Virus genome (UHGV): UHGV-1367571
Reading direction: 5' to 3' (one strand)
Source: a virus
Length of the DNA: 38,839 bases
Positions 1 to 30,228 of this stretch are shown here, one piece after another. Position 1 is the stretch's first letter; every line of letters begins with the position of its first letter. Under the pieces are notes generated by a model that was not told the DNA's origin, searched no databases, and saw nothing but the letters and a program-made list of their open reading frames with translations. Made by a program: the position numbers and the translations under genes.

Positions 1-163
1 CTACTGTATCTGTGTCTGTCTCATTCTCATGGTACCAACGTAGATCCATATCCAACCGACTAACTGCAATCTTACGAGCCAGATCCTTAGTGGTCTTACC
101 TCCAACACGTCCATAATCAGGATTAGAAATAACTCCCTTTACAATTTCTTCTCTAGTTAACAT
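1..163 (-). CDS. hypothetical small protein, 3-prime end beyond window edge (partial). N-terminus MLTREEIVKGVISNPDYGRVGGKTTKDLARKIAVSRL has an HTH-like stretch.
   Basis: ATG at 163..161 with GAGGT RBS 9 nt upstream. The frame stays open to position 1 with no stop. Reached by TAA-T-ATG coupling from the upstream 31-aa peptide. Confidence 0.45.
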   Translation of the reverse strand, partial: MLTREEIVKGVISNPDYGRVGGKTTKDLARKIAVSRLDMDLRWYHENETDTDTV

Positions 164-164
164 A

Positions 165-260
165 TTATTTTACCTCACTTTTCTTAATCTTTTTTAATTT
201 CCGTTTAATAATAAATAACATAATATAAGCATACACTATATTTTTAAGTTTGTCAAACAT
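165..260 (-). CDS. 31-aa hydrophobic peptide MFDKLKNIVYAYIMLFIIKRKLKKIKKSEVK (one TM helix plus basic tail)
   Basis: Strong RBS AAGGAGGG formed by the last codons of the Prim-Pol gene, 7 nt before the ATG. The stop overlaps the next ATG (TAATATG). Below the ORF-track size cutoff. Confidence 0.4.
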   Translation of the reverse strand: MFDKLKNIVYAYIMLFIIKRKLKKIKKSEVK

Positions 261-262
261 TT

Positions 263-1066
263 TTAACCCTCCTTCTTATATTTTTCGCTACTACTGATCG
301 CCTCAACCATTGGAATTATTTCACTTACATCTAGTGGAGGTTTGATAAAGTTTTGATTAATAATGTTAGCCCATTTATAAACTTCATCGTGAGGCATTCG
401 TTGACCTATTAAGAAACCTACTTGTGCAGCTAACCAGTTGTTCCTGTTTCCTTCATCGGCACCTTTTGACCAGTACACCATTTTAGAGGCGATAAATGTC
501 ATAAGATCCCCATTTTCTTGATAGTCCCGAACTGGTTTTTGATATAGTTCCAATAACCATTGGGGAGCCTCAGGGATCTCACTGAATGGAATATCATTAA
601 TAATTTTATAATGTTTTAGTGATCCATGTTCCGTTTCTAATACGCTATCCTCTGCCACCATAAATTGACCGTGATTTCTAAAGTCAACCCCTTTAATCAT
701 ATCAATATTAGGATAAAACTTACTCTCGAACATGTTTTCGGGTAGTTTGTAATAATAGTGTAAACCATCATTAGGGCTTTTAATAGTTCTAGTTTTAGGT
801 AACGTTAGATCATGATTTACTAAAAACTCTTTTAATTCTATAACGCCATCTATTACCTCCCATTTTTTACTCATATGTCTATCAATATCAACACACACTA
901 AACCGCTAACTTTACCAGTAAGGATACCAATATTTCCCTTCCATTTAATTAGATCAGCTAACGAGTCGCCTTGTTTAAATGATCCTTTATAAGCAGGTTT
1001 TTTATTAGTTAACCGCCTCATAGCGATCCCTAGTTTAGCATATTCTAGGATCTTTCTTTTTTCCAA
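263..1066 (-). CDS. bifunctional DNA primase/polymerase (Prim-Pol N-terminal domain with PriCT_1 C-terminal domain)
   Basis: N-terminal GNIGILTGKVSGLVCVDIDRH matches the Prim-Pol catalytic DxD region. The C-terminal GNRNNWLAAQVGFLIGQ resembles PriCT_1. TTG start with RBS AGAGGAGGA. Recognised from memory of the family; no search run. Confidence 0.8.
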   Translation of the reverse strand: MEKRKILEYAKLGIAMRRLTNKKPAYKGSFKQGDSLADLIKWKGNIGILTGKVSGLVCVDIDRHMSKKWEVIDGVIELKEFLVNHDLTLPKTRTIKSPNDGLHYYYKLPENMFESKFYPNIDMIKGVDFRNHGQFMVAEDSVLETEHGSLKHYKIINDIPFSEIPEAPQWLLELYQKPVRDYQENGDLMTFIASKMVYWSKGADEGNRNNWLAAQVGFLIGQRMPHDEVYKWANIINQNFIKPPLDVSEIIPMVEAISSSEKYKKEG

Positions 1067-1068
1067 TA

Positions 1069-1233
1069 TTACTCCTCCTCTTTAATGTTATGTTTACGAA
1101 CGATAATGAATGCCACTACTGCGATCGCAATAACCAAGATAGGTACAGCAAAAACTTTTACCATTGCAATAATAAACGATACTAAAATGATCAATCCGAT
1201 CACTAAACTTAAACTAAATTTTGCAAATCTCAT
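1069..1233 (-). CDS. small two-TM membrane protein of 54 aa. The ORF track extends it to 1272, but the internal ATG at 1233 has the RBS AAGGGAGA.
   Basis: Hydrophobic segments LSLVIGLIILVSFIIAMV and VPILVIAIAVVAFIIV. A good SD sequence lies 8 nt before the ATG at 1233. No SD lies before the ATG at 1272. Confidence 0.5.
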   Translation of the reverse strand: MRFAKFSLSLVIGLIILVSFIIAMVKVFAVPILVIAIAVVAFIIVRKHNIKEEE

Positions 1234-1234
1234 T

Positions 1235-1321
1235 TTAACAATCTCCCTTCTCAAAATAATTAATAACTCCATATGTTAATCCGAAAGCTGCTACCATAAA
1301 TAATAATGTGAATACTGCCAT
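1235..1321 (-). CDS. 28-aa hydrophobic peptide MAVFTLLFMVAAFGLTYGVINYFEKGDC
   Basis: RBS AGAAGGAA lies 8 nt upstream and directly downstream of promoter 1354..1382. The stop codon is followed after 1 nt by the ATG at 1233. Short, so coding status is uncertain. Confidence 0.35.
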   Translation of the reverse strand: MAVFTLLFMVAAFGLTYGVINYFEKGDC

Positions 1322-1353
1322 TTTAAATTCCTTCTTTCTTTTAGTATATATTA

Positions 1354-1382
1354 ATTATAATCTAAGGGGCTGAGTTTGTCAA
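1354..1382 (-). promoter_or_regulatory. sigma-A type early promoter: -35 TTGACA (1377..1382), 17-bp spacer, -10 TATAAT (1354..1359)
   Basis: Consensus hexamers read on the minus strand. The -35 sits inside a GGGG..CCCC inverted repeat followed on the plus strand by a T-run. Confidence 0.7.
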
Positions 1383-1395
1383 CCCCTTTTTTAAC

Positions 1396-1587
1396 TTATT
1401 TTTCTAATTCTTGTTTTTTGATATAAACCAATCTACTTAGCTCTAAGTATTGCTGAGGTGTTAGGTAGTCTGTTTCTCTGATAAAGTCGATCATGTCGAA
1501 AGTGTCTGCGATCTGTTCTAGGGTAGTTACTTCCTCTAATTTGTTAACGATCATTTTCTTATCTGTTGCGAAATTTTTTTCATTCAT
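1396..1587 (-). CDS. hypothetical early protein (63 aa)
   Basis: ORF with RBS AGAGGGAG upstream of the ATG. Own promoter at 1621..1649. Confidence 0.6.
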   Translation of the reverse strand: MNEKNFATDKKMIVNKLEEVTTLEQIADTFDMIDFIRETDYLTPQQYLELSRLVYIKKQELEK

Positions 1588-1620
1588 GTTTATTACTCCC
1601 TCTCTTTATCTTATGTACTT

Positions 1621-1649
1621 AGTATATCATTGGGGGTCGAACTTGTCAA
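1621..1649 (-). promoter_or_regulatory. early promoter: TTGACA, 17-bp spacer, TGaTATACT (extended -10)
   Basis: The same 29-bp module recurs at 8362..8390 (GGGGTCGAACTTGTCAACCCC). Confidence 0.7.
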
Positions 1650-1656
1650 CCCCTTT

Positions 1657-1908
1657 TTAACTTATTTTAAATCTTTTTTCAAATTCTTCAATAAAGGCAG
1701 TTACTACTTCATTTTTTAAGTTTTCTATATGAGTTTCAATTTCTTTTGCTTGTTCTTCTGAAAGTTCTTCTGTTTCGTCCAACTCACTCATTAGGTCGTA
1801 TGCTTGTTCTAAAAATTCGTTTCTTACTGTGTTTTGAGTAGCAGTTACCATATCCATGTTATCGATTGTTAATTCTTTCAATTCGTTTAGTTGGTTTTTG
1901 AAATTCAT
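1657..1908 (-). CDS. hypothetical early protein (83 aa, acidic, helical)
   Basis: ORF with RBS GGAAGGAAG. Promoter at 1942..1970. Confidence 0.6.
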   Translation of the reverse strand: MNFKNQLNELKELTIDNMDMVTATQNTVRNEFLEQAYDLMSELDETEELSEEQAKEIETHIENLKNEVVTAFIEEFEKRFKIS

Positions 1909-1941
1909 ATTAATTACTTCCTTCCCTTAACTTATGAATTA

Positions 1942-1970
1942 AGTATACCATGGAAAAACCAGTCTGTCAA
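1942..1970 (-). promoter_or_regulatory. early promoter TTGACA-17-TGgTATACT
   Basis: Consensus -35 and extended -10 on the minus strand. Confidence 0.65.
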
Positions 1971-1995
1971 CATTTCTTATACATTAATTTAAAAC

Positions 1996-2025
1996 TTGAC
2001 TTTGTAAGCGCTTTCATGGTATAAT
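1996..2025 (+). promoter_or_regulatory. plus-strand promoter TTGACT-18-TGgTATAAT with GTAAGCGCTTtC in the spacer
   Basis: Same architecture as the late promoters at 21719 and 23305. It points away from all neighbouring genes. Confidence 0.55.
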
Positions 2026-2031
2026 AATTTA

Positions 2032-2137
2032 TAGATAGGGGATCTGTTCCCTATCTCCTTCCTCCATTTTTGTTTATACTTTTTCATTCTTCTTTCATTT
2101 CTTTCTTCTGTAGCCCCTCTCGTCAGGGGCTTTTTTA
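2032..2137 (+). ncRNA. candidate small RNA of about 105 nt, defined by promoter 1996..2025 and intrinsic terminator 2112..2137
   Basis: No ORF. Contains the hairpin GATAGGG..CCCTATC, the pyrimidine tract CTCCTTCCTCC (anti-SD-like) and a terminal 7-bp GC stem AGCCCCT/AGGGGCT followed by TTTTTT. Confidence 0.35.
2112..2137 (+). terminator. rho-independent terminator (AGCCCCT-CTCGTC-AGGGGCT followed by T6)
   Basis: Perfect 7-bp GC-rich stem with a U-tract in plus-strand orientation only. Confidence 0.65.
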
Positions 2138-2376
2138 ATACCCTTTTAATAACATATGTTATTTTATAAACAAATAAATAGACTTAGAACCTGAGTTTGT
2201 CCAATGGGGACAATAAACTTTTCTAAGTCTTAATCTATTATATTATGTGAGTTTTGTTTTCTTCGTCGCTCTCACACTAACGACAAGCCACACTGTAGCT
2301 CTTCTTATACTGCACATCATGTGTACAGTTTATTTCGCCGACTTTAAGGAGTTAACGGCTTTCCTTTTATAATTAT

Positions 2377-2406
2377 ATTATACCATAGTAACGGCTTAAA
2401 AATCAA
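2377..2406 (-). promoter_or_regulatory. minus-strand promoter TTGATT-18-TGgTATAAT overlapping the stop of ORF 2396..2647
   Basis: Extended -10 consensus. It would transcribe the ORF-free structured region 2136..2376. Confidence 0.4.
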
Positions 2407-2647
2407 ATTCAATATACTCTTCTTTTAATTGACCCTCTAACTCATCAATCAACCAAGCAAGATAGGTCTGCGCCTTTTTAAGATCCTCAATTCCGTTCTT
2501 TTGTTTGTAACGTAACATATACTTTAATACATTACCATTTAAAAAGCCTTGAAACTCTTCTTGTGTAAATGTATCTTTCATCACCTTAATAGGTTCATGT
2601 TCGCCATTAATAGTATAATGTTTCTGGTTATCGATTAAATTATTCAT
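2396..2647 (-). CDS. hypothetical early protein (83 aa)
   Basis: ORF coupled by ATGA overlap to the upstream ORF 2644..2826. Confidence 0.55.
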   Translation of the reverse strand: MNNLIDNQKHYTINGEHEPIKVMKDTFTQEEFQGFLNGNVLKYMLRYKQKNGIEDLKKAQTYLAWLIDELEGQLKEEYIEFDF

Positions 2648-2826
2648 CTATACTCTCCTTCATATCCTGCTAACAACCACGCTAGCTCATTATTCTCTTT
2701 TTCAATCAACTCGCAGTACTTCTCTAACTGTTCATAATCATCTAATAACTCTTTATGTTCGCTTAACAAATGATTGTACTTGCTCTGGATTGTGTTTAGA
2801 GGCTTGTTCTGATTGTCCCCAACCAT
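2644..2826 (-). CDS. hypothetical acidic helical protein (60 aa)
   Basis: ORF. Weak SD. Overlaps the alternative-frame peptide 2753..2908. Confidence 0.45.
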   Translation of the reverse strand: MVGDNQNKPLNTIQSKYNHLLSEHKELLDDYEQLEKYCELIEKENNELAWLLAGYEGEYR

Positions 2827-2908
2827 TATTGCACACGTCCTTTAATTCGTTTATTTGTGAAAATAAGATCGCCAGTAATGGTATAATCAAAATAATAGAT
2901 AAATACAT
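2753..2908 (-). CDS. 51-aa peptide with N-terminal TM helix (MYLSIILIIPLLAILF...)
   Basis: Strong RBS AAGGAGGTT 6 nt upstream. Promoter 2947..2976 lies directly upstream. Overlaps ORF 2644..2826 in another frame, so only one of the two may be real. Confidence 0.35.
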   Translation of the reverse strand: MYLSIILIIPLLAILFSQINELKDVCNNGWGQSEQASKHNPEQVQSFVKRT

Positions 2909-2946
2909 TCGTATAACCTCCTTTATATTAAATATCTTATAGGTTA

Positions 2947-2976
2947 ATTATACCACACTGTCTAATATTATTGCAA
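2947..2976 (-). promoter_or_regulatory. early promoter TTGCAA-18-TGgTATAAT
   Basis: Extended -10 consensus on the minus strand. Confidence 0.55.
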
Positions 2977-2991
2977 CTATTGGACGTAGTT

Positions 2992-3303
2992 CTAAAGCCC
3001 TACAAGCGGTTTAAATACACTTACTATAACTTTATTAAAGTCGTCCATAGAATGCCGTTCAAGGTCAATAAAGCCCTCTTTAGCTAATTTGGTGCCGTTG
3101 TTCATCGCTGTAATGATTAAATTGTTGTCGATCCGATTGAAAACTACTTCTTGTTTATTTGATGCACCCTTTACTACGATCTCACGAATATCTCCCTTAT
3201 CAAAATCAGTCGCCATTAACATTTGATTATCCGACTCTGCCACAGTATCCTCTACCCATTTATAAACATCTAACATTCTAATCATTATGCTTGCGCCTCC
3301 CAA
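2992..3303 (-). CDS. hypothetical protein (103 aa)
   Basis: ORF in the early operon. Confidence 0.5.
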   Translation of the reverse strand: MGGASIMIRMLDVYKWVEDTVAESDNQMLMATDFDKGDIREIVVKGASNKQEVVFNRIDNNLIITAMNNGTKLAKEGFIDLERHSMDDFNKVIVSVFKPLVGL

Positions 3304-3500
3304 ACCAATAGATCTAATGTTTCAAATGATTTTCTCATTACTTTAATACTGTCTAAATTGTACCCATGTTTTTCTAATAACTCCTGAACCTCTGTAGCCT
3401 CACCATTTTCCCAACCGTATAAAATACCCTCGTTATCCCAACCACCATATATCTCTTGGATCTGTTCGATTGTGAAATTGTCTTTAAATAGTTGTTTCAT
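3285..3500 (-). CDS. hypothetical protein (71 aa)
   Basis: ORF. Adjacent (1-nt gap) to the upstream ORF. Confidence 0.5.
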   Translation of the reverse strand: MKQLFKDNFTIEQIQEIYGGWDNEGILYGWENGEATEVQELLEKHGYNLDSIKVMRKSFETLDLLVWEAQA

Positions 3501-3501
3501 A

Positions 3502-3816
3502 TTATTCCCACCCCTCTAAAATTTCCTTTACTTTTTCCTCTAATTCTTTCGCCTTCCGGTTATTATCTAAGTTTTTAGTAACTGTTGTAACATCAATACC
3601 GCTCAGCCGTTTATATTCTAAAATGATCTCTTTTTGACGATCGTTTAACCCTGCATACATATTTTTCGTTTTGATAAGCTCTACATTTTGCTTTTTCAAT
3701 TCGTCGTTATGTTCTTTATATTTAACGTTATCCGCTGCTAGTGTGTAAACTAAAGCCACGCTTGCTATAATTCCTACTGTGGTCAAAATAAGATCTCCAA
3801 TTACTCTTTTATTCAT
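3502..3816 (-). CDS. hypothetical membrane-anchored coiled-coil protein (104 aa, N-terminal TM)
   Basis: ORF. Start coupled as ATGAATAA with the stop of 3809..3985. Confidence 0.55.
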   Translation of the reverse strand: MNKRVIGDLILTTVGIIASVALVYTLAADNVKYKEHNDELKKQNVELIKTKNMYAGLNDRQKEIILEYKRLSGIDVTTVTKNLDNNRKAKELEEKVKEILEGWE

Positions 3817-3985
3817 TATCCAATTCCTCCAATTTTATTACTTTAATAGTATTCTGATCGTGATACTCTTCCTCGAACTCTGCTGAAAATTTAACATAGG
3901 CAAAAGTGATATTAATTTCAGTTACTAAAAATAGCTCTAAACAACCAGTGTTATTATTCTTTACTTGGATCTCATACAGATTCAT
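3809..3985 (-). CDS. hypothetical protein (58 aa), missed by the ORF track
   Basis: RBS GGAGGA 5 nt upstream of the ATG at 3985. The stop overlaps the next gene start. Translation checked codon by codon against the sequence. Confidence 0.55.
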   Translation of the reverse strand: MNLYEIQVKNNNTGCLELFLVTEINITFAYVKFSAEFEEEYHDQNTIKVIKLEELDNE

Positions 3986-4220
3986 TATTATCCTCCATCA
4001 TTTCCCAATATTTAAGTTTAATATCGTGTGCAGTGGCGGTCATTTCAGATAACCCTAATGTCCCAAATGCCACAACGTACATCGTTTGTAAACCAGTTAC
4101 AAAATCATAATAATCTCGTTCTAATGTCGTTTTAGGGTGTCCTGAAAAGTAATTATCTACTAACACCTCGCAATAATCAGTTACAATCTTTTTAAAAATG
4201 TCTAATTGGTCTTTATTCAT
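3972..4220 (-). CDS. hypothetical protein (82 aa)
   Basis: ORF. 8-nt overlap with the upstream ORF. Confidence 0.55.
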   Translation of the reverse strand: MNKDQLDIFKKIVTDYCEVLVDNYFSGHPKTTLERDYYDFVTGLQTMYVVAFGTLGLSEMTATAHDIKLKYWEMMEDNNESV

Positions 4221-4404
4221 CTAATTCGCCTCGTTTCATGTTCGTATAATGCTGAATGCTAGATCGTACCCGACTCATGTCGCTAATTGTGTTATCGATT
4301 TCTTGTTGGATCTGAGTGCTTTGGTAACGTAAACCTCTTAATCGTCCCTCTAATTCTGATAACTTTAAATTCTCATGTGCAATAACATTGTCAATTAATT
4401 CCAT
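4213..4404 (-). CDS. hypothetical protein (63 aa)
   Basis: ORF with RBS AGAGAGGAAG. Promoter at 4436..4464. Confidence 0.55.
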   Translation of the reverse strand: MELIDNVIAHENLKLSELEGRLRGLRYQSTQIQQEIDNTISDMSRVRSSIQHYTNMKRGELDE

Positions 4405-4435
4405 TCTATTACTTCCTCTCTTTTAATATATTCAT

Positions 4436-4464
4436 ATAATACTATATGTAACTGAGAAAGTCAA
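4436..4464 (-). promoter_or_regulatory. early promoter TTGACT-17-TATTAT with a tandem second TTGACT box 14 bp upstream
   Basis: Element GAGAAAG-TTGACT-N8-TTGACT-TTCTC on the minus strand. Confidence 0.55.
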
Positions 4465-4493
4465 CCCTTTTTAGTCAACTTTCTCAAAATTAT

Positions 4494-4838
4494 TTATTCG
4501 CCTAAATCATAAATCTCTTTATAGATACTACCTAACACCTTACTTACCGCCTCATCAACGAACTCCTTTAATTCTTCTTTAGTGAAGGTTACTCGATTGG
4601 GCTTAATTAATTCTCCGTATACTTCATTAAGTAATGATCCTACACTACAAAAGTCATTATCATCATCGTAAATACCTAACTTACCATCTTCTCGCTTGAA
4701 AATTCTGTAAGTAACCCCTTCAGTGAACCATGCTGAATGATTGTTTTCAGTTACTTTAAAATAATCCCCTTCTTGAAAATCTTCCTCTCTTAAGAAGTCA
4801 ATCTCATACTCGCTCATTATTTTACACTCCCTTTTCAA
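4494..4838 (-). CDS. hypothetical protein (114 aa)
   Basis: ORF. Confidence 0.55.
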   Translation of the reverse strand: MKRECKIMSEYEIDFLREEDFQEGDYFKVTENNHSAWFTEGVTYRIFKREDGKLGIYDDDNDFCSVGSLLNEVYGELIKPNRVTFTKEELKEFVDEAVSKVLGSIYKEIYDLGE

Positions 4839-5211
4839 ATTCTGGCTGCAGGTGATACGATTTCAATACGTCCATATATAACTTGTGTGTTACATGGTGG
4901 TAGTTACTTATACTTTCAAAAATATCACCGAATGTCATATCTGAGTAAATCATTTCATCAATAGCAGCCTTAATCTTTTCATATGTTTCCTGATCATCAT
5001 CGCTAACTGGATACTCTTCCTCTGTGCTACCCATTAAAATGATCTCTAACACATCAATTTCAAACCCTGATTCTTTTTCCAATTTTTTAATAGCGTGTTC
5101 TTCATTAACTGCCATAACTACTCGTTGATACCGTGCTTGTGCCTCTTTGTCCTTGTTGTCAATAAATACCACGTTATAAATTCCTTGCTTTGCCATTTCC
5201 ATTCTAATCAC
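4822..5211 (-). CDS. hypothetical protein (129 aa)
   Basis: ORF. Promoter at 5234..5262. Confidence 0.55.
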   Translation of the reverse strand: MIRMEMAKQGIYNVVFIDNKDKEAQARYQRVVMAVNEEHAIKKLEKESGFEIDVLEIILMGSTEEEYPVSDDDQETYEKIKAAIDEMIYSDMTFGDIFESISNYHHVTHKLYMDVLKSYHLQPEFEKGV

Positions 5212-5233
5212 TTCTTTCTTTTAGTATATATTA

Positions 5234-5262
5234 ATTATAATCCATTAAATTGAGAAAGTCAA
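5234..5262 (-). promoter_or_regulatory. early promoter TTGACT-17-TATAAT with a tandem TTGACT box
   Basis: Near-identical to the 4436 module. The -10 and 5-prime UTR duplicate the 1343..1361 module. Confidence 0.65.
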
Positions 5263-5309
5263 CCATTTTTAGTCAACTTTCTCAAACTTATTTTAGCTTG
5301 TCAATAGTT

Positions 5310-6620
5310 TTACTCAAATTCTTTTAAAGTTTCCAATGTTTTTTCCAATCGGTTCGCTTTTTGTTCTAATTGGAACCCTTGGTTTTCAACTCGTTCGGCT
5401 TTTTCGTATAGATCAGCTGAGGCAGCTCGCAACTCCTTAATTTTATCCTCGATTTTTTCCCGAGTTGTTTTTTCTGGTTCACAGTGTTCTACTGGTTCTT
5501 TAATGTCTGGTTTAGGCACATATTCAAATTGACGTCTTGCCATTAAATATTGGCTACTATCAGATAGACTAATGTTAACATTTCCATTATCAAAAACTTT
5601 AGTCACTCTATAAATATCACCTACTTTGATACCCTGTAAATGATCATCGTATAATAACTGAGTTACTTTTATATACTTATCTTTATTACTTAATTTTGTG
5701 AAATAGTCGACTTCACTAATATATTTAAACTGTACTTTAGTTAGTAGGTAATTTGTATAATCATCATTAAGGAATACTCTTACATCTCCATCTGAATCTG
5801 TTGAGCTTACTTCAAATACATCGCCGATTGACACTCCTTTTTCGACATCACCATATAATAACTCTGTTACTTCCACATATTCTTTTCTCACTTCTTTTTC
5901 CTCCTCTTTTTTGTCAACTAGTTTAAACTGTGCCATACAGATACCATTCAAATATAAGGCGATCTCGTCAGATTTTCTAATACTGTCAGTGTCGCTTTTA
6001 ATAACTAACTCACCTGTAAAATATCTAGTTACAATGTACTTTTTACCTTTAGTCCAGTGAGTAAAACCACCTGTGTTAGTGCATTCTAGTACCATTCCCT
6101 CTTTAATGTCGAACTTAGTGTACTCATCTTTTACGATCTCCAAACTCACATCATAATTATCGATAGGATTGTTTAAATAATGTAAAATATCATTAATATC
6201 TCTGGTTGTTTTACTATCTGTTGAAAGATAAAGATCGCCCTGCTTATTTTTACATACTACATAAACTTTACCTGTAGTCCAAAAACTAAATTCACCATCA
6301 TCTACACAACGTAATTTCATGCCTTCTTTAATATCGTTTTTAGTGTATTTCACTTCTTTTTCCTCCTCTACAATTTCAAGGTGTGCATTACAAACATTTT
6401 TATTATTTAATCTCATTAGAATACCAGTGATATGAGATCGTTCGTTATCATCGCTAGCAATATATAGCGCCCCTTCATTATCTGATTTAACCTCGTAAAT
6501 TTTTCCCACAGTCCACCAATGATAACCTCTAGTATTAACACACCGTAATTTCATGCCCTCTTTAATGTCTTTTTCAGTATATTCCATTATCTTTTCCCTC
6601 CATCTATTAATGTCAAACAT
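5310..6620 (-). CDS. internal-repeat protein (436 aa): three ~75-aa repeats with DIKEGMKLRCV..W.T.GK.Y.V core, two ~58-aa repeats, and a C-terminal coiled coil
   Basis: The repeats are visible in the translation. RBS GGTGGAG. No family recognised. Confidence 0.65.
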   Translation of the reverse strand: MFDINRWREKIMEYTEKDIKEGMKLRCVNTRGYHWWTVGKIYEVKSDNEGALYIASDDNERSHITGILMRLNNKNVCNAHLEIVEEEKEVKYTKNDIKEGMKLRCVDDGEFSFWTTGKVYVVCKNKQGDLYLSTDSKTTRDINDILHYLNNPIDNYDVSLEIVKDEYTKFDIKEGMVLECTNTGGFTHWTKGKKYIVTRYFTGELVIKSDTDSIRKSDEIALYLNGICMAQFKLVDKKEEEKEVRKEYVEVTELLYGDVEKGVSIGDVFEVSSTDSDGDVRVFLNDDYTNYLLTKVQFKYISEVDYFTKLSNKDKYIKVTQLLYDDHLQGIKVGDIYRVTKVFDNGNVNISLSDSSQYLMARRQFEYVPKPDIKEPVEHCEPEKTTREKIEDKIKELRAASADLYEKAERVENQGFQLEQKANRLEKTLETLKEFE

Positions 6621-6663
6621 ACTCCACCTAGCCCCAGTCCCCAGATAATACCTAATATAAATA

Positions 6664-7014
6664 TCACTTATTAAGATCCTCCTTAATCCTTAATAGTTGC
6701 ATAAACTGATCGTACTCAATGGATACCTCATCTTGATTATTGTAACATGTTCTAACTAGTTCGTCAAGTAAATTTTTTACATGTTCTTTAGGATCTGTAG
6801 TAGCTGTAATGTCAACTAATTCCACCTCGACTAATCCGCTTTCTTCAATATATCTAATTAACTCATCTATAGTTTCAGTACACCCTACTTGGTCGCCATC
6901 ATCATCAATTATATAACGTGAAAATGAAAATCTACCTACCTCGATCGGATAAATTTTATCTTCTGTGAAACACCTACTACCTGATCTAGTTACCTCTAAT
7001 CCATACTTTTTCAT
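6664..7014 (-). CDS. hypothetical acidic protein (116 aa)
   Basis: ORF. ATGA coupling with 7011..7172. Confidence 0.55.
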   Translation of the reverse strand: MKKYGLEVTRSGSRCFTEDKIYPIEVGRFSFSRYIIDDDGDQVGCTETIDELIRYIEESGLVEVELVDITATTDPKEHVKNLLDELVRTCYNNQDEVSIEYDQFMQLLRIKEDLNK

Positions 7015-7172
7015 TCCTGTACCTCCTTAACAAGTCTATTTAAAATAGTGTTTAGTTCTGTATACTCTACGATTGTCAATGCGGCGTAACCAGTTTCTAA
7101 TTGCTCCTCTGCGTTTAAAGTAAATACCATGTTAGTATGGCGGATCATATCTAACTTTCTATCATTATTCAT
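7011..7172 (-). CDS. hypothetical protein (53 aa), missed by the ORF track
   Basis: RBS TAAGGAGGTAGAG. The stop TGA overlaps the ATG of 6664..7014. Translation checked codon by codon. Confidence 0.55.
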   Translation of the reverse strand: MNNDRKLDMIRHTNMVFTLNAEEQLETGYAALTIVEYTELNTILNRLVKEVQE

Positions 7173-7173
7173 A

Positions 7174-7377
7174 TTACTCTACCTCCTTAATTGATATAAT
7201 CATGTTTACATTTTGCATTTTTTGGGCGATCTCCCACGCCTCATCTTGATCACTAGCATAAATGTAACCTGTATCATAACGATCGAACCGATCCATAAAT
7301 ACTAATTTATACTGAGCGATCTCATGAGGTCTACTTGCTATATAATGAAACATCACATCGTTAATTCTATCAGCCAA
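7174..7377 (-). CDS. hypothetical protein (67 aa)
   Basis: ORF. Confidence 0.5.
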   Translation of the reverse strand: MADRINDVMFHYIASRPHEIAQYKLVFMDRFDRYDTGYIYASDQDEAWEIAQKMQNVNMIISIKEVE

Positions 7378-7393
7378 TTACTCACCTTCCTTC

Positions 7394-7615
7394 TTACTCG
7401 TTAATAAATGCTAATTCGTCCAACATATCATCTAAAACAGCATATTCTGCTTGTGAGATAAGTTTTTGATCTGCTGCGCCGTCAACAATTCGATCTAGTG
7501 TGTTAACTGTTCCACCGACATAAGTATTAAGGGTACTCTTTTCTGTACCGTTGTTCATCATTCCCATAATATTTTCCTGAGCTGCAATAACCTGACCTTT
7601 TAATAATTCAAACAT
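7394..7615 (-). CDS. hypothetical protein (73 aa)
   Basis: ORF with RBS AAGAAGGAAGGTGAG. Promoter at 7648..7676. Confidence 0.55.
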   Translation of the reverse strand: MFELLKGQVIAAQENIMGMMNNGTEKSTLNTYVGGTVNTLDRIVDGAADQKLISQAEYAVLDDMLDELAFINE

Positions 7616-7647
7616 TTTAAATTCCTTCTTTCTTTTATTATATATTA

Positions 7648-7676
7648 ATTATAATCCAAAGGGCTGAACTTATCAA
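7648..7676 (-). promoter_or_regulatory. early promoter TTGATA-17-TATAAT with a second TTGACT box upstream
   Basis: Shares the -10 and UTR module with the 1354 and 5234 promoters. Confidence 0.6.
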
Positions 7677-7702
7677 CCCTTTTAGTCAACTTTTTTTTAA
7701 TT

Positions 7703-7858
7703 TTATTTTTTCATTGATTCCCAGTCTTTGCGAGTGATAACTTGACCGTTTACTTTTCTTTTTGCAACTTCTACGGCTTCCATAAATGTTTCACGTTCTG
7801 CATAACCTCGTTTAGTTTCACTATTGATAATAATGTATTGTTTTTTAGTTTTTGTCAT
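7703..7858 (-). CDS. hypothetical basic protein (51 aa), missed by the ORF track
   Basis: RBS GAGGAAG. Promoter 7892..7920 lies upstream. This replaces the spurious plus-strand ORF 7742..7975. Confidence 0.55.
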   Translation of the reverse strand: MTKTKKQYIIINSETKRGYAERETFMEAVEVAKRKVNGQVITRKDWESMKK

Positions 7859-7891
7859 GTTTATTACTTCCTCTCTTTATCTTATGAACTA

Positions 7892-7920
7892 AGTATACCA
7901 TGGTTATTTCAGGTTGTCAA
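7892..7920 (-). promoter_or_regulatory. early promoter TTGACA-17-TGgTATACT with a tandem TTGACA box
   Basis: Consensus on the minus strand. Confidence 0.65.
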
Positions 7921-7949
7921 CTGTTTTTGTCAATTATTTTTAAACTTTT

Positions 7950-8147
7950 TCAATGGCGTTCTAAAAATCGATTAAGTGACTCTTTCATTTTATCAATTTG
8001 TATCTGCCGTTCATCTTTTGAAATATTTTCATTAAATAGCCATGTTTTGAACCAACCTTGTTTTGATACATGAACTAAAATGCTGCCTGTTCGTAATGTT
8101 TCGATCTCAATTGTGAAACCATCTTCCACATGTCTTTTAATTTTCAT
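7950..8147 (-). CDS. hypothetical protein (65 aa)
   Basis: ORF with RBS AAGGAGGGAAA. Confidence 0.55.
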   Translation of the reverse strand: MKIKRHVEDGFTIEIETLRTGSILVHVSKQGWFKTWLFNENISKDERQIQIDKMKESLNRFLERH

Positions 8148-8158
8148 TATTTCCCTCC

Positions 8159-8329
8159 TTAAAAGTTGACAATTGTATAATCGTAAAATCTTGGGTTGTG
8201 TCGATCTGTGCAGCTACCGCTAACAATGTGGATCTCAGGGACTTGTTTTAATAACTCTACTGTTTCATCGCTTAGGTTCAGTTCGTAGTTTCTTTTCTTT
8301 TTGTGGTCGATAATTTTTACTTTATTCAT
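8159..8329 (-). CDS. hypothetical protein (56 aa), missed by the ORF track
   Basis: RBS GAGGAAG. Promoter at 8362..8390. Confidence 0.5.
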   Translation of the reverse strand: MNKVKIIDHKKKRNYELNLSDETVELLKQVPEIHIVSGSCTDRHNPRFYDYTIVNF

Positions 8330-8361
8330 GTAATTTCTTCCTCTCTTTATCTTATGTACTT

Positions 8362-8390
8362 AGTATAACCTTAGGGGTCGAACTTGTCAA
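8362..8390 (-). promoter_or_regulatory. early promoter TTGACA-17-TATACT (exact copy of the 1621 module)
   Basis: Sequence identical to 1621..1655. Confidence 0.7.
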
Positions 8391-8414
8391 CCCCTTTTGC
8401 CAACTTTTTGTAAA

Positions 8415-8624
8415 TTATTTTTGTAAATAAACATTTAATTGAACTGAATTGTTTTCGGTTGGTTCAATAGATACCACTTTTTTATGAAAGTATTCCAGTA
8501 CAAATTGTGTGGGTAGGTAACCACTTCTGTACATGAAACTAAAATCATATGAGCGAAAATCATCGCAGTAAATTCTAACCTCAACGCCGTACTCAATAAC
8601 CTCTAATAATTGTTTAAATGTCAT
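8415..8624 (-). CDS. hypothetical protein (69 aa)
   Basis: ORF with RBS GAGAGGAAG. Promoter at 8657..8685. Confidence 0.55.
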   Translation of the reverse strand: MTFKQLLEVIEYGVEVRIYCDDFRSYDFSFMYRSGYLPTQFVLEYFHKKVVSIEPTENNSVQLNVYLQK

Positions 8625-8656
8625 GTAATTTCTTCCTCTCTCTATTTGATATATTA

Positions 8657-8685
8657 ATAATAATCTATAAAAAGAAAAAAGTCAA
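8657..8685 (-). promoter_or_regulatory. early promoter TTGACT-17-TATTAT with a tandem TTGACT box
   Basis: Minus-strand consensus. Confidence 0.55.
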
Positions 8686-8714
8686 CTGTTTTAGTCAACT
8701 TTTTTCAAATTATT

Positions 8715-10472
8715 TTAAAATGTTATTTCTTCATCGGTTAGCAGGTCACTATTTTCTTTTGAAATACCATAGAATACTCGTTTTTTACCTACGTTGGTCG
8801 TTTTTTCCAGATCGCCATTGTTTAATTTATTCCGAATCATTTTGAGATCCAACTCGTTATAAACCAGTTTTCTAAATGAAGCATGTTTCAAAATTTTAGC
8901 CGAGTTATTTTCTGAAAACCATTCTTTAAAGTCCTCATACAGATCGCCACGGTTCACATAATCCTCTTCATTATTAGTAATAGTATAATCTGACTCTAAT
9001 AAAAACTGCTTTACTGGATTATTTTCAGCTTGCCAATCGCCTTTTAATCTAATAGCTATATCTGATTGATACAATGGATCTTGTGTAAATTGTCCGTTTT
9101 TCTCATCATACCATTTATTTCTAGCTGTTTGGATTGCTAAATAGATTAGTTTTCTAAGGTCTGTATCATCGGATCCCAATAATTTTTCTCGGTAGTCGTA
9201 AATTTCTAGTGATTTTTTTTGGTTTTCGGGATCTCTCATATTGTTCTGAAATACTAGCAAATCTAATCGGCGCTCTGTTGCTCCATCTCGTGAGCTTAAT
9301 TGTGGTAATTGGTTAGCGTTTAGCCAAAAATTCGCCTTATTTTGAAACATCATTCCATCACTATATAAGTTCCGTGCTTTTAATTGTGCTTGTCCTGTGA
9401 TTAATTTTTTAAGTGTTTCAATGTTTTCCAGATAGTTGGTTTTTACATCATCATCAAAATTGACTAGGGCGCCAACTAAAGGCATTAATTTTGTATCTGG
9501 GGTTTGGCTTGTAATATCTGCTAACGATACCTCAGCCCACAATGATTTACCTATTGTTTCAAAGCAACGTTTAACGACTAATTGCACCTCTGATTTTCCG
9601 TTACCGTGATCGCTAATGCCTTGTAAAGTGTTCCCTACCGAAACCAAAGCCGATTGAGAAAGACTTGCCTTATTAAAGAATGATAGTCCTAAGAACTCTA
9701 AAAAGGTTCGTTTACTGTCACCTAATAAGAACTCTAACCATTCCTCAAAGGGTTGTTTTTGTTTAATGTCGTATTCTATTGGTGTGTGTTTCAAACGTCC
9801 TAATACATAATCATCACCTTGGGGGGCTTGAAAGCTATTTGTATGAATATTAAATGTTTTTGTAAACGGAATTAAGTATTCTTTTTTACCAATAAAAGGG
9901 TTTTCCTCAGGTGTCACTTGGTTTACTTGTCGTGTGATTGCAGTAATCAACTCGTTTTGTTGCTTAATTGGAATGGTTACCGTTCTTAATAGTGGGTTTA
10001 CAATCGATCCAGTTACAACTTTCTCGGCGGCATCTTTATCTATTTTCCAGATCTTATTTACCTCGTCAAAAATAACCATCTCTATTTCATTGTTACTCAT
10101 TAAGTGACCTTGTTTGGCTATTAAGGATCCTAATAAAGAAACATCATCTATATAAGGGGTATATTCACCTGTTTTTTTATTCTCTCTATATTGTATTACC
10201 TCTGTTTGTCTTAATTCTTTAAATAATTTTTCAGGATAATCTGGTTCTTTAAATGATAAAATACTTGTTTCAAGATTATTTCTTAATTGTTCTTGTTTTT
10301 CTCTATCTAAGTCACCTAGTTCGATTAGTTGTTCTGGAATAGGTTCGGTATTTGGTGTAATCTCCTTTAGTTTTTCGTTTCTGAGGTTTTCTCTAAACTT
10401 TTCCATTTCCTCGGCGCTCATCACTTGGTTATCCGTTGTTAATTCATCTAGTGGGTTTTCAAATTGTTCCAT
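8715..10472 (-). CDS. SF3 helicase, D5/P4-family primase-helicase C-terminal-like protein (585 aa)
   Basis: Walker A GNGKSEV and Walker-B-like NFDDD within a D5_C-like region, recognised from memory. RBS AGGAGGA. Confidence 0.7.
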   Translation of the reverse strand: MEQFENPLDELTTDNQVMSAEEMEKFRENLRNEKLKEITPNTEPIPEQLIELGDLDREKQEQLRNNLETSILSFKEPDYPEKLFKELRQTEVIQYRENKKTGEYTPYIDDVSLLGSLIAKQGHLMSNNEIEMVIFDEVNKIWKIDKDAAEKVVTGSIVNPLLRTVTIPIKQQNELITAITRQVNQVTPEENPFIGKKEYLIPFTKTFNIHTNSFQAPQGDDYVLGRLKHTPIEYDIKQKQPFEEWLEFLLGDSKRTFLEFLGLSFFNKASLSQSALVSVGNTLQGISDHGNGKSEVQLVVKRCFETIGKSLWAEVSLADITSQTPDTKLMPLVGALVNFDDDVKTNYLENIETLKKLITGQAQLKARNLYSDGMMFQNKANFWLNANQLPQLSSRDGATERRLDLLVFQNNMRDPENQKKSLEIYDYREKLLGSDDTDLRKLIYLAIQTARNKWYDEKNGQFTQDPLYQSDIAIRLKGDWQAENNPVKQFLLESDYTITNNEEDYVNRGDLYEDFKEWFSENNSAKILKHASFRKLVYNELDLKMIRNKLNNGDLEKTTNVGKKRVFYGISKENSDLLTDEEITF

Positions 10473-10486
10473 GTGTTACATTCCTC

Positions 10487-10702
10487 CTATTTATCTAATT
10501 TCATATTAATAACTCTAAAATCTGGTTGTTCATACTCACTTATTTTAAAGCCTTTTGACATTCCTTTTTCCAAGTGTCTGTAAAATGTTCGTTTTGATAC
10601 GTTTAATAATTCGCAAGCTTTTTCAACTGTGACAACTAGATCACCTGTATATTTTTCGCCATCTTGGTTTAGAGGACATTCTTCAATTAAGTAAAATTTC
10701 AT
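10487..10702 (-). CDS. small HTH DNA-binding protein, putative early regulator (71 aa)
   Basis: LLNVSKRTFYRHLEKG helix-turn-helix. First gene after the divergent control region. Confidence 0.6.
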   Translation of the reverse strand: MKFYLIEECPLNQDGEKYTGDLVVTVEKACELLNVSKRTFYRHLEKGMSKGFKISEYEQPDFRVINMKLDK

Positions 10703-12962: not shown

Positions 12963-13342
12963 TTAGTAGGGTATCATGATCGGGGTATTGCTATACTAAG
13001 TAGGGGTAGTGATATAATAGTAGGGCTATTGAGTGGGGTACCACATATAGAGATAGGGCTATGTAGATAGGGGGTAGGGGAGTAAGGGGTAGGCTATAAT
13101 GGTAAGGTGTTGACAAGTAATAGTTAATATGTTAGTGTGATAGTATCTTAATGATTAGTGTAAATGATTATAGTAACTAATATATAATGAAGGTGATACT
13201 GGTTGTTAAGGTACTACAATACATAAGGATCCAATACAATCAATGCAACTAAAGATAATTAATGCAACCTAAATAAAAGTAAGGGGATCATAATATATTT
13301 TAGTAAGTGGATCGCAACATAAAAGGTAGCAACATTATTCTA

Positions 13343-13388
13343 GGGTAGGGGTATCTGGCAGGGGGTAGGGGTAGGGTGGTAGGGTAGG
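13343..13388 (+). repeat. G-quadruplex-forming tract GGG-TA-GGGG-N9-GGGGG-TA-GGGG-TA-GGG-TGGTA-GGG-TAGG (TAGGG-type repeats)
   Basis: At least six G3+ runs with 2-9-nt loops. Similar tracts at 13046..13093 and 12969..13006. Confidence 0.6.
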
Positions 13389-13767
13389 CAGTAGGTCAAC
13401 CAACTAAACACGAACGATAGTAATATAAATTTAAAAAATTATTCGTAAAAAATAAAAAATTAATTTAAAATAAAAAATAAAAAAATAGGAAAAAAATTTA
13501 ATTAAATAACAAAAAAATTTTTCAGAAGTCCAAAAATAATTTCAGAAATTTTATCCCCGAGTCCCCCCGCTTTCAAAAAAATTCAAGTACCCCCGACTCA
13601 GATTGAACCGCCCCCCATATTATCTTCACACAATTCCTCAAAATCTATTTTGAATTTCAATTTTACTACGACAGGTGGAGTACTTAGAAAATATAGTTTA
13701 TAAATAATCAACGTAACAAAGAGAATAACATAACATAACACGTTAATAATAATCAGGAGGTTTTTAA

Positions 13768-20075: not shown

Positions 20076-20141
20076 TAGTAAGGGGGCGCTTGTAATGAGT
20101 GTCCCTTTTGTGCTATAATAAATTATAAAGGAGGTAACACT

Positions 20142-21718: not shown

Positions 21719-21748
21719 TTGCTTTTGTAAGCGCTTACATGGTATAAT
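21719..21748 (+). promoter_or_regulatory. late promoter TTGCTT-18-TGgTATAAT with the perfect palindrome GTAAGCGCTTAC (21727..21738) in the spacer
   Basis: Extended -10 and palindrome. Confidence 0.6.
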
Positions 21749-21790: not shown

Positions 21791-22615
21791 ATGGCAAATG
21801 CACCAATCCAATTCGATAGTGTTGACATCGGCACGATCGGTTTTAAATTTGAAGGCGATGAAACAACCGTGGCAAGTGATTGTAATGGTACTTTATCAGT
21901 TGAAACAGAAGTACAGGAAGTACAGAAAAAATGTGGCGCTACAGTAGTGGCTTCTATTTCTAAACCTACTGAAATGACAATTACAATCGAGGCACATTTA
22001 CCAGTAGAGGTATTCCGCCGTGTACAAGGTATTAAACCGATGGCAGAATTAAAAGAAGGCGTTTACGCTTATGGTGGTAAGTCTGCAGGTGAAAAATTCA
22101 CATTAACAGCTGAGATCTTAGACTTATTCACAGGTGAAAGTAAATTAATTGCATTCCCTAAAGCTGCTATTAACACAGGATTAACTTTCTCAATTGAGGC
22201 AGGAGCTGACGAATTAGCATATGTGGAAATTGAAACCAAAGCCTATCAAGATGAGTTAGGTAACTGGTACTATGAAGCATTCCCAACTGAGGCAACTGAC
22301 GTTAATAAAGTGGAATGGTTAACTAACTTCACTGAGGCGACTGTAAAAAAGTCTGATCCAACCAAAACGACAGATATTACACTAGATAAAAGTACGGTAT
22401 CCGTGGCGGTTGGTGCTGATGTGGTGGTAAATGCTACTTTAGTTCCGTCAACAAGTACAGAACCAGTTACAGCAACATCTAAGGCGGTAGCAACGGCAAC
22501 AGCAAGCGTAGCACAAAAAGCAGTAACTATTCACGGTGTTAAAGCAGGATCCACTACAGTAGACATTACAAGCGGTAAGATCACTAAAACAGTAACCGTT
22601 ACAGTAACAGAATAG
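21791..22615 (+). CDS. major tail protein with C-terminal Big_2 Ig-like domain
   Basis: The C-terminal region (ITLDKSTVSV..VKAGSTTVDITSG..TVTVTVTE) matches Big_2. Confidence 0.75.
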   Translation: MANAPIQFDSVDIGTIGFKFEGDETTVASDCNGTLSVETEVQEVQKKCGATVVASISKPTEMTITIEAHLPVEVFRRVQGIKPMAELKEGVYAYGGKSAGEKFTLTAEILDLFTGESKLIAFPKAAINTGLTFSIEAGADELAYVEIETKAYQDELGNWYYEAFPTEATDVNKVEWLTNFTEATVKKSDPTKTTDITLDKSTVSVAVGADVVVNATLVPSTSTEPVTATSKAVATATASVAQKAVTIHGVKAGSTTVDITSGKITKTVTVTVTE

Positions 22616-23304: not shown

Positions 23305-23334
23305 TTGTGTAAGCGCTTACATTTATGGTATAAT
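23305..23334 (+). promoter_or_regulatory. late promoter TTGTGT-18-TGgTATAAT with GTAAGCGCTTAC (23309..23320) in the spacer
   Basis: Extended -10 and palindrome. Confidence 0.6.
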
Positions 23335-26300: not shown

Positions 26301-26424
26301 ACAAGCCCCTATTATGATCAACATCGAGGGTAATGTAGATAGTCAAGAAAGAATCAATCAAATCGCTCAACAGGTATCAGTAGCACAGTTACAACAATTC
26401 AATGTAAATAACCAATGGCAATAA
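23365..26424 (+). CDS. tape measure protein
   Basis: 1019 aa. Helical and TM-rich. Downstream of the chaperone frameshift. Confidence 0.9.
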   Translation: MANTTSTIGIRVVTDSTGAIKGIEQVGDKLGKLPKSANEASESMSELDRAAKMERMAAVSDIMNGVSQKLIGFGKTAIEASAKWTALDSQWEQTWGSMEGEANKAINSIGKETSILPNRLKPAMTSIAAFAKTAGFDTAGSLDLASRATMAAADSAAFYDRSLEDTTESLKSYLKGNFENDAALGISSTETTRNAAANKLYGKSFKDLAEDQKQLTLLQMVEDGNKLSGALGQAAREGDGLENVMGNLQQAQEDFARAVGDVIQPLFIAFLKQAANAIKFLTDGFNSLPEPIKQFIVLTGALLAGGTALAGAFVALKGVLLALGVAGISTIGVFVAIAAGVAAVIVAFKNWDKIVEKLPKGLQGSVKAITALVKAFGLLVQGKYGEEVAKLHDQFVKMFPQEWWVKMTRVAGLFTDFKTAIKSVVTISAQLAHGINDVKKYSEAYQNLEEIFGTEFARKVLDVASAFADFFRGNETSASGLSKLVDKIGAGNIAFTGLKFAISALFGPIGLLVNAFLTLAKFLGEGSVLDGIKKIAEGFMNLTTSVGEASTNVGQGVGNMLLGIITAITEFIPYLAEGAGKIVLGLVQGITVALPYFIEAIKGLLNAITTIIIELVPVIAEDGGKILTAIADGFMTLIPTFIQQVTRLIIMMLDELQKALPQIADKATQFVQTMSVTIANNLPKMIAAGTNIIVAFLKGIKDNLPRIANAAIDVIVTWINTIGSRIKEIVDSAINLFMNFVNAILNRMDEIIDIAIDIVTTLVNGLARNADKLVGSAINLLAALINGIANNLWRLEAPVRNLVRAIVKFIVNMADSLWEGAVALLEGLARGIRNNRERVRGALWEVINELGRLAFGDVLWGNGIALIRGLWDGMLAQWQHVKEWVGGIADWIADHKGPVPYDKTVLIENGMALMYGLDQGMRKGFEKVQDRVSGMAQQLQENLDGSLESDFSVTGAFNSAVTSDLRQANATSAIGSTIQQAPIMINIEGNVDSQERINQIAQQVSVAQLQQFNVNNQWQ

Positions 26425-26432
26425 GTTAAAAA

Positions 26433-26458
26433 AGGGGGTTGTAATATACTCCCTTTTT
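26433..26458 (+). terminator. terminator AGGGGGT-loop-ACTCCCT followed by T5, with TGcTATAAT directly downstream
   Basis: Hairpin plus T-run. Confidence 0.55.
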
Positions 26459-26496
26459 ATGCTATAATTAAGTTATCAAGAAAAGGAGGTTTTTCA

Positions 26497-30184: not shown

Positions 30185-30202
30185 TATATTAATAAACATC
30201 TA

Positions 30203-30228
30203 AGGGGCTTGTAATGAGTCCCTTTTTT
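30203..30228 (+). terminator. terminator AGGGGC-TTGTAATGA-GTCCCT followed by T6, with TGtGgTATAAT downstream
   Basis: Hairpin plus T-run. Confidence 0.55.

Follow-up and report, generated by a model that had tools for sequence, protein, structure and literature searches.

The DNA analyzed here, a stretch of 38,839 nucleotides of the virus genome UHGV-1367571 (hereafter the window), carries a compact plus-strand unit in which a near-consensus promoter and an intrinsic terminator enclose a short sequence without a conserved open reading frame (ORF). The unit most likely represents a new family of phage small RNA (sRNA). Its architecture recurs in three diverged types, its promoter is better conserved than the sequence that it precedes, and its stems are maintained by changes on both sides. 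The predicted RNA would expose a long C/U-rich tract beginning with an anti-Shine-Dalgarno-like motif, and we tentatively propose that it acts in trans on the purine-rich ribosome-binding regions of phage mRNAs, with a bias towards early mRNAs.

The predicted sRNA unit and its position in the phage genome

According to BLAST, the relatives of the window are Enterococcus siphophages related to Efquatrovirus, the nearest record being Enterococcus cecorum phage vB_CECAV_A40 (hereafter A40; 75% identity across 53% of a 22-kb query). The gene calls place an early/replication set on the minus strand (1-10702 and 31921-38839), which includes a polymerase and a helicase whose names were taken from A40, and the genes for packaging, head, tail and lysis on the plus strand (11211-31857). 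The sRNA unit is located inside an ORF-poor island of 487 bp (1909-2395) with minus-strand genes on both sides, one ending at 1908 and the other starting at 2396. The features of the island and the related elements elsewhere are listed in Table 1.

Table 1. Coordinates of the predicted sRNA unit, its surroundings and related elements (window positions, except for the terS-terL gap loci).
Feature	Position	Strand	Remarks
Prim-Pol gene	263-1066	-	early/replication block
Divergent early promoter	1942-1970	-	TTGACA-17-TGgTATACT; serves gene 1908-1657; back to back with the sRNA promoter
sRNA promoter	1996-2025	+	-35 TTGACT 1996-2001, 18-nt spacer, TG 2017-2018, -10 TATAAT 2020-2025
Box GTAAGCGCTTTC	2004-2015		palindromic; in the 18-nt spacer of the sRNA promoter
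Predicted sRNA start site	about 2031-2034	+	
5'-terminal hairpin	2033-2056	+	10 bp, loop UCUG; begins 2-3 nt past the predicted start
Anti-SD-like run CUCCUUCCUCC	2055-2065	+	UUCCUCC 2059-2065, core CCUCC 2061-2065
Unpaired C/U-rich tract	2057-2111	+	about 55 nt, in the fold of 2032-2139
Intrinsic terminator AGCCCCU-cucguc-AGGGGCU plus U-run	2112-2136	+	stem 2112-2118/2125-2131, T-run 2131-2136
Palindrome AATAACATATGTTATT	2148-2163		AATAACA-NN-TGTTATT; between the two convergent terminators
Convergent non-coding unit	2166-2406	-	accompanies the sRNA in every case
Hairpin modules of the convergent unit	within 2166-2406	-	several
Convergent-unit terminator hairpin plus U-rich run	2230-2180	-	U-run interrupted
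Candidate H-type pseudoknot	2284-2245	-	GUCG-uua-GUGUGAG-ag-CGAC-(A-rich)-CUCACAU; stems of 4 and 7 bp
Convergent-unit promoter	2406-2377	-	TTGATT-18-TGGTATAAT
DUF3310 protein gene	2396-2647		neighbour of the island
Candidate early ribosome-binding regions	genes 5202-4822 and 7014-6664		also the AAAGAGAGGAAG leader class
Box GTAAGCGCTTAC	21727-21738		spacer, just before TGGTATAAT; promoter 21740, ahead of the major-tail-protein gene 21791-22615
Box GTAAGCGCTTAC	23309-23320		spacer, just before TGGTATAAT; promoter 23326, ahead of the tape-measure gene 23365-26424
Box GTAAGCGCTTAC	30937-30948		within the endolysin-homologue coding sequence
terS-terL gap loci	L005 1479-1881; L006 629-1008; L025-L030		

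A sequence-only reading of this DNA had described a promoter of the form TTGACT-18-TGgTATAAT, an intrinsic terminator at 2112-2137 and, in the RNA between them, a hairpin and a CCUCC run, and each of these elements was found. The promoter matches the consensus at 11 of 12 positions and has the extended -10 TG in addition, while the terminator consists of a stem of seven pairs (five of them G-C) with a loop of 6 nt, followed by a T-run that reaches 2136. Folding of 2032-2139 yielded -25.1 kcal/mol (z = -4.7), an energy matched by none of 200 shuffled sequences. The UUCCUCC motif, whose CCUCC equals the core of the 16S rRNA anti-Shine-Dalgarno sequence, was unpaired in both the minimum-energy and the centroid folds of all three types of the unit described below. 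No other 55-nt stretch of the window is as rich in pyrimidines as 2054-2108, where they make up 89% against a window mean of 51% (standard deviation 10%).

Promoter and terminator were also searched for as a pair, using strict criteria (promoter with 11/12 matches or more; perfect stem of 6 bp or longer that includes four or more G-C pairs, plus T5). The sRNA unit is the sole such pair spaced 40-200 nt apart on either strand of the 38.8-kb window, and no pair was obtained under these criteria in 100 first-order Markov sequences of window length. The nearest plus-strand gene downstream is about 9 kb away, and the unit is therefore not merely the 5' end of a longer mRNA.

Conservation of signals and architecture in related phages

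The unit was found in 12 distinct sequences from related Enterococcus phages and metagenome contigs and in three full types, namely type W (the window and contig L039), type A (A40, L003 and eight others), which is the commonest, and type C (L046 and L047). Two diverged contigs, L049 and L051, break off within the C/U tract and contain the tract and the terminator. A BLAST search against 50,697 phage records returned the region in A40 only, the tract probably being hidden by the low-complexity filter, and when IMG/VR, JGI metagenomes and GTDB genomes were scanned for exact patterns, one true relative emerged, an IMG/VR contig, all other hits being chance matches in coding DNA. About 20 more loci were collected by searching with the neighbouring DUF3310 protein and then retrieving contigs that encode homologues. 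A covariance model of the sRNA was run on the complete genomes of Efquatrovirus AL3 and of the unrelated E. cecorum phage vB_CECAV_04 and on the collected loci; no further member was detected there, nor a second copy in the window. The sRNA family is therefore single-copy and limited to this small clade.

The stand-alone, non-coding unit of about 105 nt that the sequence-only reading had postulated is borne out by a common design, which recurs in the three diverged types and contains no conserved ORF: a hairpin at +2/+3 (AUAG...), the motif (C/A)UUCCUCC, 45-65 nt of unpaired C/U-rich sequence, a G-C terminator hairpin and a U-run. UUCCUCC is located immediately 3' of the hairpin in every full-length type; its sequence is not clearly better conserved than the remaining tract. 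The -35 element and the TGG are retained in 12/12 variants. The promoter of the diverged contig L046 (type C) matches that of the window at 30/30 bases, while identity between types W and C amounts to 46% in the 5' hairpin, about 51% (ungapped; higher by eye with gaps) in the C/U tract, 68% in the terminator and 73% in the neighbouring DUF3310 gene. The sRNA body is thus approximately 50-70% identical while the promoter is 100% identical, which indicates that the expression signals have been kept and that the body holds structure and composition.

The 5' hairpin occupies the same place in all three types, with differing sequences. A comparison of types W and C shows two hairpin pairs and one terminator pair in which both partners have changed with pairing retained; in the type C terminator, a U-A pair is replaced by C-G on both sides, and one further pair is changed on one side. 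The terminator stem is kept in all types and its loop is variable, with a different loop in L051. Across the alignment, 98% of the stem cells are paired, compared with 19-66% after displacement of the 3' partner by 1-3 columns. Differences in tract length are due to a tandem duplication of 15 nt, seen in the majority of type A copies, and to an insertion of 4 nt in L039. Taken together, the conserved signals and the conserved architecture are good evidence, from effectively only two to three independent lineages, for a functional transcript.

The promoter shares a palindromic box with two tail-gene promoters

The spacer of the sRNA promoter contains a palindromic box of the pattern G(T/A)AAGCGCTT(A/T)C, which is likely to be an operator for a dimeric DNA-binding protein. 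The sequence AAGCGCTT occurs four times in the window, against 0.36 expected occurrences. The box is also found in the promoters ahead of the major-tail-protein and tape-measure genes (Table 1). In A40, the former corresponds to the gene that follows the neck protein and the latter to the tape-measure gene, and the homologous A40 promoters carry the box as well (about 10660 and 12262, with AGCGCT cores at 10664 and 12266). A40 likewise has a coding-region copy (about 19404), which belongs to another gene close to the lysis cassette. In type A (A40 and its relatives), the box of the sRNA unit lies at about +14 to +27, in the 5' hairpin region and not in the spacer.

The sRNA promoter nearly copies the 21740 promoter, to which it corresponds in the 18-nt spacer, the position of the box and the TATAG start, and all three promoters (sRNA, 21740 and 23326) share the 18-nt spacer, TGGTATAAT, the box and an AUAG start. 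Seven other plus-strand promoters of the late region are devoid of the box, and some minus-strand promoters also have 18-nt spacers. The box had been described as a late-type GTAAGCGCTT box from which late expression of the RNA could follow. The element GTAAGCGCTT(A/T)C is real and occurs in two tail-gene promoters, and since it is common to these and the sRNA promoter, the sRNA is probably co-regulated with the two tail genes. The designation as late-type is supported only in part, as the box is missing from seven other late-region promoters and is situated downstream of the start in type A, so that timing is not readable from the sequence. A position in the spacer or just past the start would fit a repressor operator better than an activator site.

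The early minus-strand promoters form a separate class, characterized by TTGACA-17-TGnTATACT and a conserved leader. At least three copies of this cassette are present on the minus strand (1621-1649, 1942-1970 and 7892-7920), with the leader TA(A/G)TTCATAAG(A/T)TAA(A/G)GAGAGG. The first gene of the minus-strand block (10490-10702) encodes a protein of 71 aa with a sub-threshold HTH_17 match (MerR/excisionase-like; 25.2 bits versus a cut-off of 27), which is a possible binder of the box or of the palindrome at 2148-2163 and the sole lead obtained for a regulator of the box. In the late region, promoters are built into terminators at 20080-20120, 26430-26470 and 30200-30240; a -35-like TTGTAA is present in the loop of the G-C hairpin and the U-run forms the spacer, followed by TGnTATAAT. 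Each site of this kind would terminate a transcript and initiate the following one.

Predicted pairing with ribosome-binding regions

Pairing of the 55-nt tract with the regions from -30 to +21 around the start codons of 60 predicted genes was assessed by duplex energies. The tract had been proposed to be complementary to AAGGAGG sites used throughout this phage. The complementarity is present, but AAGGAGG precedes only 12 of the 60 genes; the shorter GGAGG is found upstream of 25/60. Against all 60 ribosome-binding regions, the tract reached a mean of -16.5 kcal/mol, compared with about -11 for internal coding windows. Composition-matched shuffled tracts gave -16.0 +/- 0.7 kcal/mol, 39 of 150 being as good as the real tract. 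Since the shuffles pair equally well, the general affinity for ribosome-binding regions follows from C/U-richness, a property by which an RNA of whatever sequence pairs with such regions when they are purine-rich. Among the targets, gene 5202-4822 ranked first, with a predicted -31.7 kcal/mol, and was only marginal (6/150 shuffles). No A40 orthologues of the four best window targets were found, and a conserved specific mRNA target was rejected for this reason.

A difference was observed between early and late regions. In the window, the mean energies were -18.3 vs -13.6 (p = 5e-5), and the gap exceeded that of 150/150 shuffles, whereas in A40 the corresponding values were -19.1 vs -15.8 (p = 0.003) with a gap that exceeded only 137/150 shuffles and was not significant. 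As the shuffles kept mononucleotide content only and several early leaders are paralogous, these pairing tests overstate significance. The early bias in the window is in favour of the suggestion that early genes are shut off by anti-Shine-Dalgarno pairing; the lack of significance in A40 and an overall pairing at the level of shuffles speak against it. We consider the anti-Shine-Dalgarno idea to be plausible and weakly supported, compatible with the data and mildly favoured by them.

Pairing in trans of a stand-alone non-coding RNA with purine-rich ribosome-binding regions, biased to early mRNAs, is the reading that we tentatively adopt. According to this proposal, the host sigma-A RNA polymerase would synthesize a non-coding RNA of approximately 100-120 nt from its own gene, and the 5' hairpin and the 3' terminator hairpin would shield the RNA from exonucleases. 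The exposed C/U tract, with UUCCUCC at its start, would pair with Shine-Dalgarno sequences and their A/G-rich flanks, thereby blocking ribosome binding and possibly triggering cleavage. Such pairing would be looser and more general than that of an sRNA with one target, and somewhat stronger for the minus-strand early/replication mRNAs than for those of the structural genes.

A convergent non-coding unit and the possibility of cis insulation

The sRNA unit faces a convergent non-coding unit on the minus strand (Table 1). The two promoters are inverted copies of each other over 34 nt (1993-2026 and 2376-2409; 71% complementary), and the promoter of the convergent unit carries a degenerate box, TTAAGCCGTTAC. 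The stems of the candidate pseudoknot are 100% paired in nine variants, with one pair per stem changed on both sides and still pairing. The pseudoknot block is 96-100% identical between types, and over the block 2138-2307 identity to phage A40 reaches 100%, compared with about 75-80% in its flanks. In relatives, at least four unrelated sequences, each consisting of a hairpin plus a U-run, have taken the place of the terminator hairpin of the convergent unit. The convergent unit matched no Rfam family and may be more constrained than the sRNA. Pairing between the two units was not above shuffles in any type, and a pairing of the sRNA with its convergent neighbour was therefore rejected.

The upstream modules of the convergent unit are shared with the non-coding region between terS and terL of about 105 Efquatrovirus genomes. 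This region is a mosaic in which a promoter TGTTATAAT, hairpin modules, a terminator and a promoter TGCTATAAT precede terL, and it is as short as about 90 nt in Sigurd but reaches about 650 nt in KEN14, where the units are in tandem. Another non-coding region of the window, 800 bp in length (12963-13767), precedes the HNH and terminase genes; it has TAGGGG(T/G) clusters at 13035-13095 and 13341-13395, a long A-rich block at 13446-13518 and C-runs at 13555-13615, and probably represents the cos region used for packaging.

All contigs covering this part of the island have the minus-strand terminator (2230-2180) on one side of the sRNA unit and the next minus-strand promoter (1970-1942) on the other. 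Transcription of the sRNA unit could oppose minus-strand read-through from the upstream early genes and the convergent unit into the gene block from 1908 downwards, either through colliding polymerases or through perfect duplexes with the read-through RNA that are cut by RNase III, as occurs when lambda OOP forms a duplex with cII mRNA. Read-through is conceivable, as the U-run of the terminator in the window is interrupted (AUUUAUUUGUUUAU) and the terminator may leak. The signals are moreover better conserved than the RNA body, as if transcription or mere complementarity mattered. Nevertheless, we consider such cis insulation rather unlikely, as the unit overlaps neither a coding sequence nor a ribosome-binding site, the downstream genes have a strong promoter of their own, and the compensated 5' hairpin and the conserved, unstructured C/U-rich body would be left unexplained.

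Two further readings go beyond this, and we regard them as improbable. As a free mimic of the anti-Shine-Dalgarno tail, the sRNA would be produced in large amounts at a defined time of infection and would coat purine-rich ribosome-binding regions globally, shifting translation from early to structural genes. Alternatively, the sRNA and the convergent pseudoknot RNA would form a two-RNA cassette that counters a host defence directed against RNA or the ribosome. Either version, if true, would represent a so far undescribed way in which a phage sRNA exerts temporal or counter-defence control.

Possible alternatives: protein binding or a functionless transcript

Instead of pairing with mRNAs, the tract might titrate an RNA-binding protein, for instance Rho, S1 or a component of host defence or of an RNase. 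The tract is unpaired and contains approximately 29% C and 4% G, and C-rich, G-poor unpaired RNA has the composition of Rho-binding sites. Consistent with a protein decoy, composition and length class are more conserved than the sequence, changes in length by duplication are tolerated, and no conserved specific RNA target was found. On the other hand, the sequence points to no protein partner, such decoys are not an established class in Firmicute phages, and the conserved place of UUCCUCC beside the hairpin would have no obvious role. This makes a decoy distinctly less than probable, and we assign it a low likelihood.

A similarly low likelihood applies to a transcript without function, left over from the duplication of a tail-gene-type promoter and a terminator on a mobile non-coding island. 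Such an origin would agree with the near-identity to the 21740 promoter, with the inverted 71% copy that serves the minus-strand non-coding unit, with the mosaic nature of the island and with the restriction of the family to one small clade; in addition, the RNA body diverges fast and acquires indels independent of frame. However, promoter, hairpin and terminator are intact in 12/12 variants despite 25-50% divergence of the body, the stems are maintained by two-sided changes, and the promoter has remained identical at all 30 positions beside a coding gene at 73% identity.

A possible DNA-level function and the coding potential

The island could also be a DNA-level element, such as a replication origin or a protein-binding site near the Prim-Pol gene, made up of the polypurine/polypyrimidine tract, the AT-rich palindrome and the transcription that flanks them, with the transcript serving only to activate or prime it. 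It is a non-coding island within the replication block, and the Prim-Pol gene is located 0.9-1.4 kb away in the window and in relatives. Between the two convergent terminators, the arms of the palindrome at 2148-2163 are conserved in all types and relatives while its 2-nt center varies, so that it resembles the target site of a dimeric protein, and the AT-rich segment around it is 93% identical between types W and C. However, neither iterons or direct repeats nor a local change in skew were detected at the island. Convergent transcription would add positive supercoiling between the units, which disfavours melting, and the compensated stems at the RNA level would be unexplained. We regard a function at the DNA level as very improbable.

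The coding potential of the stretch is restricted to a 22-codon TTG ORF without a Shine-Dalgarno sequence (2070-2138, plus strand) and a 32-codon antisense ORF, and conservation of either ORF was not found in relatives. A TTG/GTG ORF of 16-26 aa, rich in F, L and S, opens a few nucleotides past CCUCCAUUUU in all three types, with neither a Shine-Dalgarno sequence nor an ATG. Two 4-nt indels make the position and frame of its stop differ among the window, L039, A40 and L046, and peptide lengths and C-termini are not conserved between types. That the RNA encodes a tiny hydrophobic peptide in the manner of a type I toxin or a small membrane protein is extremely unlikely: the ORF shares its initial frame, xTG..(A/G)UA CU(U/C), among the three types and 2/4 indels are in frame, but apart from the hairpins the RNA contains hardly any G, a C/U tract gives codons for F, L, S and P in whichever frame it is read, and a start without Shine-Dalgarno sequence or ATG, together with a frame that varies relative to the stop, led us to reject the reading as a small-peptide mRNA. 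A type I toxin-antitoxin system was rejected on the same features of the hydrophobic ORF and on a complementarity to the convergent unit that is at the level of shuffles. The sRNA is accordingly treated as non-coding throughout this work.

Comparison with known systems

No Rfam family matched the sRNA at the gathering score, the best match at E <= 10 being unrelated to it, and we found no literature on sRNAs of these Enterococcus phages. Regulatory RNAs of virulent Gram-positive phages are almost unexplored, and E. cecorum phages are being collected as candidates against a poultry pathogen. The sRNA is a compact candidate for study, with one copy per genome, clear boundaries, natural variants and a testable motif, and could reveal whether a phage reprogrammes translation through an anti-Shine-Dalgarno-like RNA. 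The shared promoter box and the invariant non-coding neighbour provide ways into the transcription programme of this phage group.

In kind, the sRNA resembles the Firmicute sRNAs that occlude Shine-Dalgarno sequences by a C-rich seed, and in layout it resembles lambda OOP, although the tests that define these classes failed for both. RsaE/RoxS and the loops of S. aureus RNAIII are examples of C-rich-seed sRNAs of Firmicutes, and this host group has no known Hfq requirement. Like RsaE/RoxS, the sRNA is small, ends in an intrinsic terminator and exposes an unpaired C-rich motif complementary to GGAGG-type sites. In contrast to them, it is phage-encoded, shows no homology in sequence or structure, has no conserved target identified, and carries its motif in a linear tract of 45-65 nt and not in hairpin loops.

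Lambda OOP and P22 sar are short phage antisense RNAs that oppose an early operon, and the sRNA unit is likewise short, has its own promoter and terminator and is directed against the flow of early transcription. However, OOP and sar overlap a coding region or a ribosome-binding site with perfect complementarity, whereas the sRNA unit overlaps no gene, and an action like that of OOP would be possible only on read-through RNA. Membership in this cis-antisense class was rejected, as only an unconserved 32-codon ORF lies opposite and the genes on either side stop at 1908 and begin at 2396.

The c4 RNA of P1 and P7 is a phage antisense RNA that masks the icd-ant ribosome-binding site. The action proposed for the sRNA is similar, in that a phage RNA would repress the translation of phage mRNA by pairing in trans at a ribosome-binding region; c4, however, is processed from the same operon and has defined target boxes, while the sRNA has an independent gene and no specific boxes were found. 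A precedent for a host target is provided by lambda PreS, a phage-encoded small RNA that reportedly hijacks the host replication machinery in the lytic cycle (bioRxiv 10.1101/2024.10.31.621285), although it belongs to another phage and host group and has no sequence relation to the sRNA.

Finally, the 3' end of 16S rRNA carries the anti-Shine-Dalgarno sequence ...CCUCCUUUCU, and CUCCUUCCUCC with the U/C-rich run that follows it resembles this sequence and its flank. Unlike the rRNA tail, the sRNA would be a free small RNA, which would compete with ribosomes for mRNA and not recruit it.
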